Shown: piece by piece, positions 31,525 through 34,592 of the stretch
How positions within the stretch are numbered: the stretch's first letter is position 1
Layout of the letters: each line of letters starts with the position of its first letter
From: Escherichia phage RB49
Length of the DNA stretch: 64,000 nt
Sequence record: NC_005066.1
Reading direction: 5' to 3' (one strand)
Notes under the pieces: model-generated
The model's database searches: none
What the model saw: only the letters and a program-made list of their open reading frames with translations
Told to the model about the DNA's origin: nothing
Made by a program: the position numbers and the translations under genes

Positions 31525-31728
31525 TTAACCGTATACGCGAAAGTATTCTACTGATCCGTCGCTATACTGTTTTACATTGAATGTATTCACACCATGATTA
31601 TTTCTCATGATGACATATACACTGCGACGTTCATCGCTAAACGGCATAACTGGCGCTGGTTCAATATCAACACTAAAACCACGTTTAGCAAGTGCTTCGC
31701 CTAATTGCTTGAGTTTATCGGTAAACAT
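31525..31728 (-). CDS. Hypothetical small protein
   Basis: 67 aa ORF. Confidence 0.4.
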   Translation of the reverse strand: MFTDKLKQLGEALAKRGFSVDIEPAPVMPFSDERRSVYVIMRNNHGVNTFNVKQYSDGSVEYFRVYG

Positions 31729-32627
31729 TAAAATTCTCCGTAGTTAACCTGAAAACATTCTACACCAATTGAGCGGTACATGTCAACCACTTGATCACGG
31801 TCATCTACCGCCAAAACAACATGATAACGCGGTGCAATTTCAGAGAAGAAGATCTCTTTCTTCACTTCATGATCAGGACGACGATCATTAGTTTCACGTT
31901 GAAAGTGATCACTAGGTTCAATACCCTGTTCACGCAACCATTGCAGAGTATCTTCTTCGCAAACATCCTCACGCCCTGAGCATGTGATGATACGATAGCC
32001 ATTATCACGATACAGTTTAAGCATTTCGACCACTTGCGGACGAGGTTTATCTTCTTTGACCTTTGTCCAGTCAAACGGATGACGACCGCCCTTATCCGCT
32101 AATGTTCCATCAATATCAAAGATCACTGCCTTTGGCAGCATAGTATTCGGTTTGTATACTTCTTGACCCATATATTCCTGCATCAGATAAAATTGGTTAC
32201 GCAAATGAGAAAGTGGAATTGCTTTCTCGCCGCGATAGAAATTACGTTTCTTTAGTGTCTCAAACGGTTCATTGAACACTTGTTCAGTATACACCGCGTT
32301 AAATTCTTTTGCAAGTTCTTTGTAGAATACACGATGTTTTTCTTTCAGATTAGTATCAGAGATAATGATACTTAATCCGCGTGATAGAGTCTCACGAGCA
32401 ATCATTCTCTGAATAGACTCTACCAGCTTTTCTTTTTCCTTAGTATACTTGTATTTCAAATGTGAGTCAACACCAAACAACATAAGACGAAGATCATCGC
32501 GATTCACATTACGATAATTACTAAACCGTTTACATGTTTCCATCGCCCATGTAGTTTTACCGGACCCAGAACAACCAACGGTTAAAATCACTTCACATTT
32601 CGGCATTATTTCTCCTTCGGTTTGCAC
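31728..32627 (-). CDS. pseT: Polynucleotide kinase / 3'-phosphatase
   Basis: 299 aa; P-loop GCSGSGKT and HAD-type phosphatase motif VIFDIDGTLAD, as in T4 Pnk. Confidence 0.85.
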   Translation of the reverse strand: MQTEGEIMPKCEVILTVGCSGSGKTTWAMETCKRFSNYRNVNRDDLRLMLFGVDSHLKYKYTKEKEKLVESIQRMIARETLSRGLSIIISDTNLKEKHRVFYKELAKEFNAVYTEQVFNEPFETLKKRNFYRGEKAIPLSHLRNQFYLMQEYMGQEVYKPNTMLPKAVIFDIDGTLADKGGRHPFDWTKVKEDKPRPQVVEMLKLYRDNGYRIITCSGREDVCEEDTLQWLREQGIEPSDHFQRETNDRRPDHEVKKEIFFSEIAPRYHVVLAVDDRDQVVDMYRSIGVECFQVNYGEF

Positions 32628-33058
32628 CGTTCCTCATTAAGTTCTTTTCGATAATAACACATGATCAACTTACTTTCAAGTGTATATCTCTTAATATCCG
32701 CAAGCCAGACTCTGAATTTTTGGGAGTCCTCCCACGACATAGAAACTCTAGGTTTACCGTCTATTGTATCCACTTTCAGGTTAATGTCAACTTTTTCTAT
32801 TGGTGCTGGTAGTGGAGGATGTAATTTCGGTTCCTGTGAATAATGGTCCATTGTACACGAAGAAAGAGCAAATACAATAGGCACAGCGAAGACATGGATT
32901 ATGGCGGTCTGAAAATTCTTATGTGCTTTCTTAAACATCCAGTGTATCACGAAAATTGAAAACACCATCAGGATAATAATGCTTGCACCTATCCCCAGAT
33001 AATCAACCAGATTAAAATTGCTTATCTGCTCTTGTGTAGGCAATATTTCTATGCTCAT
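32606..33058 (-). CDS. Putative outer-membrane spanin (Rz1-like lipoprotein; true start may be the internal Met)
   Basis: Signal-like MFKKAHKNFQTAIIHVFAVPIVFALSSC with lipobox LSSC, then Pro-rich PPLPAP; follows the putative i-spanin in the pseT.3/pseT.2 position. Confidence 0.45.
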   Translation of the reverse strand: MSIEILPTQEQISNFNLVDYLGIGASIIILMVFSIFVIHWMFKKAHKNFQTAIIHVFAVPIVFALSSCTMDHYSQEPKLHPPLPAPIEKVDINLKVDTIDGKPRVSMSWEDSQKFRVWLADIKRYTLESKLIMCYYRKELNEERCKPKEK

Positions 33059-33429
33059 TTAGTAGCCTCCTTTAATTCTTCGGTAAACTCCTTAAATGAA
33101 TCATTAAGCTGTTTCTCTACCAACTTGGGTTTTTGTGCTACTACATAGCCTCGTGTAGCGTCTTTCATTGCTTTGTTTTGTTCTTCTGCAAACTTAGTTC
33201 TTATTCCGTACATCTCCTTTTGTAGCGAGTCTACAATCTTCATCTTATCATCTGTCTTTTTCTTATACTCTGTAAATTCCTGATTCAGTCGATCTACCTC
33301 CTTTTTATTTTCCCACCACATATTGCCACCCACCCCCAGCAATACAGATATGATAACAATGTATATCAGCTTTGACATATTACCCCCAACGACAAAAGGC
33401 GGGGAACTAGCCCCGCTTATTATTACCAA
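33055..33429 (-). CDS. Putative inner-membrane spanin (Rz-like: N-terminal TM plus coiled coil)
   Basis: 124 aa; TM helix LIYIVIISVLLGVGG then charged coiled-coil periplasmic domain. Confidence 0.45.
   Translation of the reverse strand: MVIISGASSPPFVVGGNMSKLIYIVIISVLLGVGGNMWWENKKEVDRLNQEFTEYKKKTDDKMKIVDSLQKEMYGIRTKFAEEQNKAMKDATRGYVVAQKPKLVEKQLNDSFKEFTEELKEATK
33398..33416 (-). terminator. Stem-loop (attenuator/terminator candidate)
   Basis: ggcgggg-aactag-ccccgc hairpin at the rnlA/spanin junction. Confidence 0.35.
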
Positions 33430-34592
33430 TCAATCTTATCAGCCGGAATAAGTTTCTTATAATTCCGTAGATAGTAAGTTTTCATTGAATCCATAATACG
33501 GTCATAATCAAGACCATCAAATGCAATCATCAGACACATGAAAATATATGCGTGTGCATCACCGTGTTTACGTGATTCGATAGTCGCATTTGATGCATAT
33601 GTCTTTCTGTCTTCTCCCGCGTGTGCGTTATAAAATTCTGTTGCTGTCGTGAAGGCATTGCGAAGAATAGACCTGAATGCTTCCTCGAATAGCTCGATTC
33701 GTTCCAGTGCTTCCGGTTCGCCTTCATATGCAGCACGCAAATCATCGGTTTCGCTTTCTACGACATAGTAGATCAGGTTATTAGGAAACATCGATGTGTT
33801 TTTAATGTTATGCACACCAATATACCATTCACTCTTCACCTTGAACATTTGACCGTCTTTAGTGCGTGCAACAATTCCTTCGATACCTTCTGCGATCCGA
33901 ACTTCATCAAGAATATTGCTAAAACGCGCTGAATCAACCTGTAACGCATTTACCAGATGAGGACGTAGGATTGCGTCAGCAAATAGCATTTGATGCGGTA
34001 CGTACTCTCCTGTGACGTTATGGCGTACATTCAGAAGTGTTAGCGACGGTTCAGAATATTCTACAACAATTCGGTTGCTGGGTGCTGTATATTCAAAGTT
34101 GAAAGTATAATCAGACCCAATATCAGCAATCTTAGCGCGTAGATCCGCATACTTCTCTGAATACAGAAGACCGTTTGCTCTCTCTGCCTGGCTTGAGTAC
34201 AAGGCCGCTTTAGACTTCAACTGAACATAGCCATTATCAATGTATGTGCTTACTAGACTACCGTCCATTTTGTCCATGACCATTTCCACATCTTCCGGCT
34301 TAAAGCGAGCGCGATCATTCTCACCCAAATTAAAAAACTTCTCCATAGGACGAGATGCAATGCGGACCGGACGACCTTTATCGTCAATTTCAAACATGAT
34401 CCCGCGACACTCTAACGCATCTGGTTTATTCCACATTTCCGGTTTGCTCAAGTACAGATAGCTAAAAATGCGCATACGGGTTTGCATCGCCGTAATTTCA
34501 TCTTTGTAATAGAACGTATCAGATCCGTCACATAGTGCCATCAGATTTTTGAACAATGCTAAAACTTTTTTGTTGTTTTCTTTTGTTGACAT
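33423..34592 (-). CDS. rnlA: RNA ligase 1
   Basis: 389 aa; RIFSY ... PDALECRGIMFE ... VRIASRPMEKFFNL and the KMDGSLVSTY adenylation-lysine motif match T4 Rnl1 as recalled. Confidence 0.85.
   Translation of the reverse strand: MSTKENNKKVLALFKNLMALCDGSDTFYYKDEITAMQTRMRIFSYLYLSKPEMWNKPDALECRGIMFEIDDKGRPVRIASRPMEKFFNLGENDRARFKPEDVEMVMDKMDGSLVSTYIDNGYVQLKSKAALYSSQAERANGLLYSEKYADLRAKIADIGSDYTFNFEYTAPSNRIVVEYSEPSLTLLNVRHNVTGEYVPHQMLFADAILRPHLVNALQVDSARFSNILDEVRIAEGIEGIVARTKDGQMFKVKSEWYIGVHNIKNTSMFPNNLIYYVVESETDDLRAAYEGEPEALERIELFEEAFRSILRNAFTTATEFYNAHAGEDRKTYASNATIESRKHGDAHAYIFMCLMIAFDGLDYDRIMDSMKTYYLRNYKKLIPADKIDW

Follow-up and report, generated by a model that had tools for sequence, protein, structure and literature searches.

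A spanin pair of the T4 type in phage RB49 and a conserved predicted membrane helix ahead of the o-spanin export signal

Results

Gene organization between rnlA and pseT

Two genes on the minus strand occupy the interval between rnlA and pseT in the window, by which we mean the whole stretch of 64,000 nucleotides of Escherichia phage RB49 DNA analyzed here (NC_005066.1). The window is a Krischvirus (RB49-like) genome with 95-99% identity to 57 phage records. The downstream ORF (32606..33058) encodes 150 amino acids plus a stop codon, and the upstream ORF extends in its longest form, which begins with a TTG codon, over 33055..33429. The two are adjacent, with the i-spanin gene preceding the o-spanin gene (the “separated” architecture), and they share the ATGA at 33055-33058, where the o-spanin start overlaps the i-spanin stop; the o-spanin stop in turn overlaps the pseT start (TAATG). 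The same arrangement of the i- and o-spanin genes was seen in six diverged lineages. Intact copies of both genes are present in all 57 Krischvirus records, the dN/dS ratios of the spanin ORFs between lineages are well below 1, and the matches to the respective protein families have E-values of 1e-32 and 3e-26, which together show that these are real genes and not chance ORFs. The positions and supporting evidence of all features are collected in Table 1.

The original prediction placed the pair in the position of T4 pseT.3/pseT.2, and the synteny agrees with this, rnlA and pseT being found on either side. The T4 gene order is rnlA-alc-pseT.3-pseT.2-pseT.1-pseT, whereas the order here is rnlA-i-o-pseT, with neither the alc gene upstream nor pseT.1 downstream. 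A terminator-like hairpin (GCGGGG-CTAGTT-CCCCGC, then CTTTTGT) lies after the rnlA stop and ahead of the i-spanin start. The sister lineage L017 has an equivalent hairpin at this location, and the record of phage G37-3 carries an annotated “terminator” feature under the matched 1.2-kb stretch. No T4 late promoter TATAAATA was found near the spanin pair on its upstream side.

Table 1 Features of the spanin locus in the window.
Feature	Position	Strand	Evidence
Terminator-like hairpin between rnlA stop and i-spanin start	33399..33416	-	Terminator scan and fold
GGGGG Shine-Dalgarno, 4 nt upstream of i-spanin ATG	33383..33387	-	Read from sequence
i-spanin gene (PseT.3 orthologue), 107 aa plus stop	33055..33378	-	PHROG 739, BLASTP, conserved start, TMD
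Predicted i-spanin transmembrane anchor LIYIVIISVLLGVGGNM, codons 4-20	33319..33369	-	Best 17-residue window, Kyte-Doolittle mean 2.18
AAGGAGG Shine-Dalgarno, 7 nt upstream of o-spanin ATG, within i-spanin 3' end	33066..33072	-	16S duplex energy
o-spanin gene (PseT.2 orthologue), 150-aa precursor plus stop	32606..33058	-	PHROG 812, BLASTP, PF26831 on close homologues
67-codon bipartite o-spanin leader	32858..33058	-	Hydropathy, charge and lipobox analysis in six lineages; selection
Predicted extra transmembrane helix TM1 (LGIGASIIILMVFSIFVIHWMF), codons 21-42	32933..32998	-	Hessa dG
Cys68 codon, predicted lipidation and LspA cleavage site (LSS|C)	32855..32857	-	Invariance, PROSITE PS51257
Predicted mature o-spanin, 83 aa	32609..32857	-	AF2, length match to T4

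Homology of the two ORFs to the T4 spanins

The i-spanin matches PHROG 739 (“Rz-like spanin”, E 3.2e-26) over residues 2-107 and is 32% identical to T4 PseT.3 over 93 aa in BLASTP (E 5e-13). The o-spanin matches PHROG 812 (also “Rz-like spanin”, E 1.4e-32) over residues 53-150 only and is 48% identical to T4 PseT.2 over 71 aa (E 1e-23). Precomputed matches to the Pfam family PF26831 (Phage_T4_Spanin) exist for close homologues of the window proteins; the window o-spanin itself gave no match in the copy of the Pfam profiles that was searched. A fold search of BFVD returned o-spanins and PseT.2 proteins, and no solved structures were found either by sequence or by fold. This homology identifies the two ORFs as orthologues of PseT.3 and PseT.2, the spanins of T4.

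The T4 proteins complement the defect of lambda Rz/Rz1, and the o-spanin cysteines C87 and C98 are both essential in T4 (PMC6139136). Our searches turned up such experiments for the T4 pair and none with Krischvirus spanins. The reading of the locus as a putative two-component spanin pair is thus supported by homology to an experimentally validated pair, by synteny, by the ATGA architecture and by the two cysteines, and a lytic function of the Krischvirus pair would be expected. The pair is not new: Kongari et al. 2018 (PMC6139136) already assigned RB49, JSE and Phi1 to the T4 spanin family, RefSeq labels both genes “Rz-like spanin”, and the pair is also annotated in GenBank.

The i-spanin

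The i-spanin starts at ATG 33378 and not at TTG 33429, the start implied by the extent first proposed for this ORF (33055..33429). The 17 extra codons of the TTG form cross the terminator-like hairpin and overlap rnlA, while the ATG has its GGGGG element and is kept as MSKL, MPKI or MIKI in all six lineages. The 107-aa start was also used for RB49, JSE and Phi1 by Kongari et al. 2018, whose supplement records the GGGGG element for JSE and Phi1 as well (PMC6139136). The start is mis-annotated in several records, and the ECD7 RefSeq and JSE records carry an 88-aa form that lacks the TMD.

In the predicted layout of the protein a cytoplasmic N-terminus of three residues is followed by the TMD, an equivalent of which is present in all 10 homologues examined, and by a helical periplasmic domain from residue 23 to 107; the protein contains no cysteine. 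AF2 placed i-spanin helices at residues of about 25-83 and 85-107, with low confidence, in a construct fused to the o-spanin (see below), and a coiled coil is given at residues 25-56 of the RB49 i-spanin in the table of Kongari et al. (PMC6139136). The N-terminal TM helix followed by a coiled-coil domain, as first described for this product, is therefore retained, and the protein is predicted to adopt the type II orientation, N-in/C-out.

Start codon of the o-spanin

The o-spanin start was originally left ambiguous between the ATGA-coupled ATG and an internal Met 40 codons downstream, and the comparative data now decide for ATG 33058. The AAGGAGG element pairs with the 3' end of 16S rRNA with a duplex energy of -11.6 kcal/mol (range over the six lineages, -8.2 to -11.7 kcal/mol), and no other in-frame start upstream of Cys68 has a conserved Shine-Dalgarno sequence in the six lineages. 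The gene is annotated with the same 453 nt in ECD7, Skers, FL15 and JSE.

If the functional o-spanin instead started at Met41 (MFKKAHKNFQ...), the upstream 40 codons would be incidental or untranslated and the protein would have a 27-residue lipoprotein signal that satisfies the PROSITE lipoprotein rules, the third, fourth and seventh residues being Lys and the Cys being residue 28. Such a start would suit the alignment to the PHROG 812 profile, which begins only at residue 53, and the doubts that the curators of the 2018 set expressed about the long form (“way too long SS?”, PMC6139136). However, Met41 is without a Shine-Dalgarno sequence (+0.5 kcal/mol compared with -11.6 at codon 1), and it is replaced by Leu in phage JSE and by Ile in the distant homologues P0007 and P0008, neither of the latter two having an alternative conserved start nearby. 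Furthermore, the 40-codon extension is open and keeps its length, purifying selection acts on it although synonymous divergence is saturated, and its motifs LP..FNL, LGIG and M31 are kept down to 62% overall identity. We therefore regard a start at Met41 as very improbable. The conserved Met31 is also unlikely as a start, since a Shine-Dalgarno sequence is absent in most lineages and the signal would have an atypical length of 37 residues. Collectively, the sequence comparisons strongly favor ATG 33058 over the internal Met41, and the 150-aa ORF should not be cut back to Met41.

The lipobox and the predicted mature o-spanin

Start of translation at ATG 33058 gives a precursor with a 67-residue bipartite leader. 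The original prediction of an internal signal with the lipobox LSSC agrees well with the comparison: a hydrophobic, signal-like stretch precedes Cys68, the core pattern of PROSITE PS51257 matches at LSSC, the LSSC at residues 65-68 is invariant in all aligned long-form sequences while the flanking residues vary, and Cys68 is invariant in 46 family members. The residue at +2 is Thr in RB49 and Thr or Ser across the lineages and, not being Asp, predicts sorting to the outer membrane. These observations suggest that the o-spanin is processed at Cys68.

The segment after the lipobox, QEPKLHPPLPAP, had been described as Pro-rich. The prolines are present, but they belong to a family-conserved HPxxPxP motif, whose residues H80, P81 and P84 vary hardly or not at all among 46 sequences, and do not represent bulk proline richness of the Rz1 kind. 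The predicted mature protein consists of Cys68, a linker with HPPLPAP, a beta-hairpin at residues 95-106 and a helix at residues 109-136, with C134 and C145. AF2 modeled residues 81 to 140 with pLDDT values of 92-98 in 10-residue blocks. None of the 46 sequences lacks C134 or C145, which correspond to T4 C87 and C98 and have the same 11-residue spacing. When the mature o-spanin was fused through a linker to the periplasmic part of the i-spanin, AF2 gave a pLDDT of 60 and a pTM of 0.28, and no confident complex was obtained.

Predicted topology of the bipartite leader

The leader consists of an acidic N-tail with the LPTQEQ..FNL motif (residues 1-20), the hydrophobic segment TM1 (21-42), a basic loop (KKAHKNFQ, 43-50) and a signal-type h-region (51-67) that closes with the lipobox residues L-S-S. 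TM1, at residues of about 21-42, is thus a second hydrophobic helix upstream of the signal stretch, and it is the stronger of the two: the Hessa dG summed over residues 20-38 is -2.1 kcal/mol, whereas the signal h-region comes to +2.7 and the T4 signal peptide to +2.5. All six lineages have an N-tail with a net charge of -1 to -2, a loop with +2 to +3, a TM1 dG of -0.1 to -2.9 kcal/mol and a second segment of signal-peptide grade. AF2 placed helices at residues 17-44 and 47-69 of this region. The charge pattern suggests a leader that crosses the membrane twice, with a periplasmic N-tail, a cytoplasmic loop and Cys68 at the periplasmic face.

A precursor of this kind might never be processed at all, in which case the 150-aa protein would remain in the inner membrane with two TM segments and a periplasmic PseT.2 domain, and the outer membrane would be disrupted in a different way. 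TM1 is indeed strong enough for a stable TM helix, the full-length protein misses the standard lipoprotein rules (the Cys is at residue 68 and not between residues 15 and 35, where the positional rule of the predictors requires it), and our literature search found no natural precedent for LspA cleaving a signal behind an upstream TM helix. It is, however, hard to explain without Lgt and LspA why L-S-S-C and a +2 residue other than Asp are invariant while the rest of the h-region changes, and the charge pattern puts Cys68 at the face where these two enzymes act. The part that follows the cleavage site has the exact T4 length of 83 aa and keeps every family-invariant residue, and a spanin whose two subunits both resided in the inner membrane could not span the distance to the outer one. 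We consider it unlikely that the protein stays unprocessed, although less so than a start at Met41, and in the following processing at Cys68 is presumed.

Conservation and distribution of the leader

All 57 isolates carry an intact leader, and o-spanin codons 2-50 are under purifying selection. Synonymous sites in the leader codons are saturated while dN is low; the comparison of lineages L010 and L011 gave 24 synonymous and 10 nonsynonymous changes and an omega of 0.023, and omega was 0.14-0.27 in the other lineage pairs. His55 and Pro60 are conserved in the h-region, as are specific motifs in the predicted periplasmic tail. Within the PseT.2 family the leader was found only in the Krischvirus clade and is missing both from the sister lineage and from some 70 further clusters of the family. 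In the other family members that were examined, among them the sister lineage, the Cys is preceded by 15-34 residues, and since they manage with signals of this length the leader is not needed for spanin function as such. It has previously been flagged, without analysis, as “Too long signal sequence” (Kongari et al. 2018 supplement, PMC6139136).

Two possible origins of the leader were rejected. A tblastn search with the 67 aa against 50,697 phage records matched only the 57 Krischvirus records, no match was obtained in PHROG, Pfam or NCBIfam, and an exhaustive HMMER search of 1.84 billion representatives gave nothing outside the clade that aligned to residues 1-46; these searches offer no free-standing homologue from which the leader could have been fused. 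BFVD did return a 63-aa “membrane protein” of phage vB_EcoM_005, but similarity at the BLAST level was excluded by the tblastn search with the leader. A diverged tandem duplication of the signal peptide was analyzed by aligning the N-terminal part to its own signal, to the signals of T4 and the sister lineage and to the i-spanin TMD, and the local alignments were no better than shuffles (p 0.07-0.99). The idea of a duplication came from phage Sf25, whose PseT.2 also has 150 aa, in that case owing to a perfect in-frame duplication.

The conservation of the leader, its motifs and its gain in one clade point to an added function beyond mere export, and the leader could be a functional module in itself. 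It might be released by LspA as a 67-residue N-out/C-out hairpin with a role in, e.g., modulation of the holin or lysis timing, superinfection exclusion or membrane perturbation, much as the colicin release lipoproteins leave stable signal peptides, or it might act as a pro-region that delays o-spanin maturation or localizes it beside the i-spanin. Either version would account for purifying selection across lineages with saturated dS, for the conserved tail motifs with His55 and Pro60, and for a leader that one clade has gained while the sister lineage and the other clusters do without. On the other hand, a free-standing homologue was not found in the searches above, and the leader changes more rapidly than the mature core (dN 0.23-0.78 compared with 0.01-0.11), a difference that would fit a need for no more than generic hydrophobicity. 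Such a module is a possibility that we hold tentatively. With similar reserve we put forward that one ORF may yield two membrane products, a normal lipoprotein spanin of the outer membrane and a 67-residue hairpin recruited for a separate job in this clade, such as control over the time or place of spanin maturation or an effect on the holin or on exclusion; if so, it would be the first natural lipoprotein signal peptide that serves as the second helix of a Lep-like hairpin.

Proposed mechanism

Whatever else the leader may do, we consider it probable that the locus encodes the two-component spanin of Krischvirus, formed by the PseT.3 and PseT.2 orthologues, and that its o-spanin is made as a 150-aa precursor with a Lep-like leader hairpin, is processed at Cys68 and takes part in membrane fusion. 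The i-spanin would be anchored in the inner membrane by its N-terminal TMD and reach into the periplasm with its helical coiled-coil domain. The o-spanin would be produced by coupled translation from ATG 33058 through the ATGA overlap and the AAGGAGG element. For its 67-residue leader, insertion as a helical hairpin of the Lep type is most likely: the acidic N-tail would be periplasmic, TM1 would cross inward, the basic KKAHK loop would be cytoplasmic and the second hydrophobic segment would serve as the internal signal of the lipoprotein. After lipidation of Cys68 by Lgt and cleavage of the Ser67-Cys68 bond by LspA, the 83-aa lipoprotein, with Thr at +2, would be carried to the outer membrane by the Lol system. 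The C-terminal parts of both subunits are expected to bind across the periplasm, as in T4 and lambda, and the conserved C134/C145 pair may form homotypic disulfide links. Following removal of the peptidoglycan by holin and endolysin, the outer membrane would be fused with the inner one by the complex and thereby destroyed.

Discussion

Comparison with known systems

With T4 PseT.3/PseT.2 the pair shares homology of both subunits, the 4-nt ATGA overlap and the location between rnlA and pseT. The o-spanins have in common the 83-aa mature part, the HPxxPxP linker, the beta-hairpin and helix, and two Cys 11 residues apart, and the i-spanins the C-terminal motif VVAxKPxLVEKQxNxSF with K as the final residue. 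They differ in that the T4 o-spanin has 16 residues before the lipobox Cys and the RB49 protein has 67, because of the extra TM helix and the basic loop, and in that the i-spanin is 10 residues shorter here, within the first periplasmic helix.

The RB49, JSE and Phi1 spanins in the set of Kongari et al. 2018 are essentially the same genes (95-99% identical), listed with an i-spanin of 107 aa and an o-spanin of 150 aa, made up of a 67-aa signal and an 83-aa mature part, and as “sep” with a -4 overlap (PMC6139136). Nothing substantive differs between that listing and the present description, to which analyses of the start codon, selection, topology and clade distribution have been added.

In the two-component spanin of lambda the C-termini of the subunits bind each other, the complex is stabilized by disulfides, and fusion of the inner and outer membranes is the last step of lysis. 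The predicted mechanism, with a type II inner-membrane protein and an outer-membrane lipoprotein, is shared with lambda Rz/Rz1, but there is no sequence similarity, the lambda genes are embedded, and Rz1 is unstructured and proline-rich. The cysteine requirement is also less strict in lambda than in T4 (PMC6139136). The unimolecular spanins of the T1 gp11 type, in which one protein joins an outer-membrane lipoprotein signal at its N-terminus to a TMD at its C-terminus, are not matched, as both hydrophobic segments are located upstream of the lipobox, none is C-terminal, and there is a separate i-spanin gene.

The only unusual trait of the pair is the conserved extra membrane helix ahead of the o-spanin export signal, and this helix is what defeats the standard lipoprotein predictors. 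In E. coli Lep an N-out H1 is followed by the basic cytoplasmic P1 loop and by H2, which functions as an internal signal. The predicted leader has the same features in a short uncharged or acidic translocated N-tail, TM1, a positive cytoplasmic loop and a second, exporting hydrophobic segment. The sequences are unrelated, and H2 of Lep is not cleaved, whereas the second segment here ends in a lipobox where a cut by LspA is predicted. If the o-spanin is processed as proposed, the known substrate range of Lgt and LspA would be widened, and the Krischvirus pair would provide a natural system for asking whether the leaders of phage lipoproteins have functions of their own.

Identity and gene order of the spanin pair

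The 1.2-kb stretch around the pair matches 57 phage records with 95-99% identity, all of them Krischvirus (RB49-like Straboviridae) with E. coli or Shigella as hosts. The two small ORFs predicted between rnlA and pseT were both found in place, the minus-strand order being rnlA, i-spanin ORF, o-spanin ORF, pseT, a cd.2-like ORF and dCMP deaminase. For the 107-aa upstream protein the profile hit is PHROG 739 'Rz-like spanin' (E 3e-26) and the T4 hit is PseT.3 (BLASTP E 5e-13). The 150-aa downstream protein hits PHROG 812, also named 'Rz-like spanin', through residues 53-150 (E 1e-32), and T4 PseT.2 by BLASTP (E 1e-23, 71 residues aligned at 48% identity), and its close homologues carry precomputed matches to Pfam PF26831 Phage_T4_Spanin. 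Together with the synteny these homologies support the two-component spanin reading, and a T4-type spanin pair is close to certain.

Previously, RB49, JSE and Phi1 have been placed among the T4-family i-spanins and o-spanins, with a 107-aa i-spanin, an o-spanin of 150 aa in total (83-aa mature part and 67-aa signal) and the pair architecture 'separated' with a -4 overlap (Kongari et al. 2018, PMC6139136). The RefSeq record (ECD7) and several GenBank records also use the names 'Rz-like spanin', 'i-spanin'/'o-spanin' or 'Rz1'. The original prediction is therefore correct, in observation as in interpretation, but already known, and the remaining interest of the pair lies only in a conserved, clade-specific bipartite leader and in annotation corrections.

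Features of the spanin region
Feature	Coordinates	Strand	Remarks
rnlA	33423..34592	-	First in gene order
Terminator-like hairpin	33399..33416	-	GCGGGG-CTAGTT-CCCCGC, then CTTTTGT; in the 44-nt gap between rnlA stop and i-spanin start
Upstream ORF, mechanical listing	33055..33429	-	124 aa, TTG start
i-spanin	33055..33378	-	107 aa (MSKLIYIV...)
o-spanin	32606..33058	-	150 aa, LSSC with Cys68
Promoter-like site	32763-32790	-	Sigma-70 type, near-consensus: TTGACA, 16-nt spacer, TACAAT; 11/12 matches
o-spanin codons 91-150	32609-32788	-	3' part
Longest-ORF start of pseT	32604-32627	-	GTG at 32627, spurious

Since the annotated and conserved pseT start (ATG at 32606) overlaps the o-spanin stop (TAATG), the three genes i-spanin, o-spanin and pseT are coupled in translation, each to the next. 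No T4 late promoter (TATAAATA) is present upstream of the spanin genes. The promoter-like site lies inside the o-spanin coding region (codons ~90-99), ~155 nt upstream of the pseT start, and may serve pseT as an early promoter. Between lineages, dS is 0.35-1.8 in the 3' part of o-spanin, whereas leader codons 2-50 are saturated; this pattern suggests either that the gene is a mosaic made by recombination or that its nucleotide sequence is under additional constraint around the promoter-like site and the junction with pseT.

Start codons of the two genes

The predicted i-spanin ORF exists, but it starts at the ATG at 33378, which has a Shine-Dalgarno sequence (GGGGG) 4 nt before it, and not at the TTG at 33429. 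This start and the 107-aa length are kept in six diverged lineages, and the same start was used by Kongari et al. 2018 for RB49, JSE and Phi1 (PMC6139136) and in the Skers and FL15 records. The TTG form adds 17 codons, which cross the terminator-like hairpin and enter rnlA. Two records begin the gene at an internal Met (88 aa, MWWENKK...), namely ECD7 RefSeq (YP_009602183.1, L001 1780-2046) and JSE (ACL78178.1, L013 438-704), which removes the transmembrane anchor. The anticipated N-terminal transmembrane helix and coiled coil hold for the 107-aa protein, with a transmembrane segment at residues 4-20, the remainder predicted helical, and a coiled coil at residues 25-56 in the published RB49 table (PMC6139136).

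For the o-spanin the original prediction left the start ambiguous between the ATGA-coupled ATG at 33058 and Met41. The comparison of lineages, including five collected from metagenomes (62-83% protein identity), favours the former. All lineages share rnlA, a 107-aa i-spanin, an o-spanin (151-155 aa in the five metagenomic lineages) and pseT. Codon 1 is preceded by an AAGGAG-type Shine-Dalgarno sequence in six of six lineages (duplex energies -8.2 to -11.7 kcal/mol), and no other in-frame ATG, GTG or TTG upstream of the Cys has a conserved one in these lineages. An internal start at Met41 would have a duplex energy of +0.5, and this Met is not conserved: JSE has Leu at the position, and the two most distant homologues have Ile. 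Leader codons 2-50 are under purifying selection, with 24 synonymous and 10 nonsynonymous differences between the diverged lineages L010 and L011 (omega 0.023) and omega 0.14-0.27 in the other measurable pairs; because synonymous sites are saturated, nucleotide-level conservation is excluded as the cause. Finally, the leader is intact in 57/57 isolates. These four lines of evidence make the long form very probable and the Met41 start, therefore, unlikely.

A bipartite leader in the o-spanin precursor

The internal signal and lipobox LSSC are present as described, with a signal-type hydrophobic stretch before and QEPKLHPPLPAP after, and a stronger hydrophobic helix lies further upstream (residues 21-42). 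From the supported start 67 residues precede the lipobox Cys (72 in two lineages), with the same pattern in six of six lineages: a tail of 17-25 residues (net charge -1 to -2) that carries a conserved LP..FNL motif, a strongly hydrophobic helix (summed Hessa dG -0.1 to -2.9 kcal/mol), a short loop of charge +2 to +3, and a second hydrophobic stretch of signal-peptide grade (+2.2 to +4.4; T4 signal +2.5) ending in an invariant L-S-S-C whose +2 residue is Thr or Ser. In RB49 Lys and Arg are absent before residue 43, and AF2 places one leader helix at residues 17-44 and another at 47-69. Under the positive-inside rule the pattern predicts a Lep-like hairpin with the tail out, the loop in and Cys68 at the periplasmic face, where Lgt and LspA would be able to act, and Lol would then carry the 83-aa product on to the outer membrane; we infer these Cys68 steps.

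We consider a standard T4-type spanin with the o-subunit made as a hairpin pre-lipoprotein to be the probable reading, processing at Cys68 itself being a little less assured. Lipoprotein predictors apply a positional rule that the full-length protein breaks, and no natural precedent for such processing is documented in the literature searched. That the product stays an unprocessed inner-membrane protein is improbable, given the invariant lipobox and a mature part of exactly T4's length.

Distribution and origin of the leader

The leader had been flagged in the Kongari supplement ('Too long signal sequence ... perfect SD ... way too long SS?'; PMC6139136). When 1.84 billion representative proteins were scanned exhaustively with HMMER, 71 hits came back, PseT.2-family relatives apart from a few long proteins matching short stretches only. 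Residues 1-46 were aligned by the Krischvirus cluster only; the other hits have 70-132 aa, and in the 17 that were read an ordinary signal puts 15-34 residues ahead of the Cys. The sister lineage L017 shares the synteny, the ATGA coupling, an i-spanin of 107 aa and the equivalent hairpin at the same place after rnlA, but its o-spanin has a normal 21-residue signal. These comparisons mark the long leader as a clade-specific gain, since maintained. The gain in one clade and its maintenance would also fit a leader with its own function or a regulatory pro-region, a tentative elaboration of the hairpin pre-lipoprotein and not an exclusive alternative to it.

Tblastn with the leader gave nothing outside Krischvirus, no free-standing homologue was found by tblastn of phage records, HMMER scan or profile search, and there is no sign of internal duplication as its origin. 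Foldseek weakly matched the precursor model (E 1e-3, 36% identity over 61 columns) to a 63-aa 'membrane protein' of Escherichia phage vB_EcoM_005 (BFVD A0A3Q9R8Z0), and the match possibly covers the modelled two-helix leader. The PseT.2 homologue of the Tequatrovirus Sf25 also has 150 aa (MF327009.1, 60187..60639; 8188-8640 in L016), but there ~51 codons are perfectly duplicated in tandem and in frame. The repeated unit takes in the signal h-region, the lipobox, the linker and the first strand, so that one ORF holds two lipoboxes; the duplication may be genuine or may have arisen in assembly.

Comparison with the T4 spanins

The mature domain is modelled confidently by AF2 as a beta-hairpin and a long helix (pLDDT 92-98 in 10-residue blocks, 81 to 140), and a fold search against viral models returned PseT.2 proteins and o-spanins; searches by sequence and by fold found no solved structure. 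The T4 order in this region is rnlA-alc-pseT.3-pseT.2-pseT.1-pseT, and the pair therefore occupies the orthologous slot, as predicted; in T4, alc separates rnlA from pseT.3 and pseT.1 separates pseT.2 from pseT, whereas the Krischvirus clade has neither (31728-34592). A lysis defect in lambda Rz/Rz1 is complemented by T4 pseT.3 and pseT.2, and T4 PseT.2 requires both of its cysteines (PMC6139136). The family-invariant residues are all in the RB49 o-spanin (lipobox Cys, H80/P81/P84, C134 and C145), and C134 and C145 are 11 residues apart, like C87 and C98 of T4 PseT.2.
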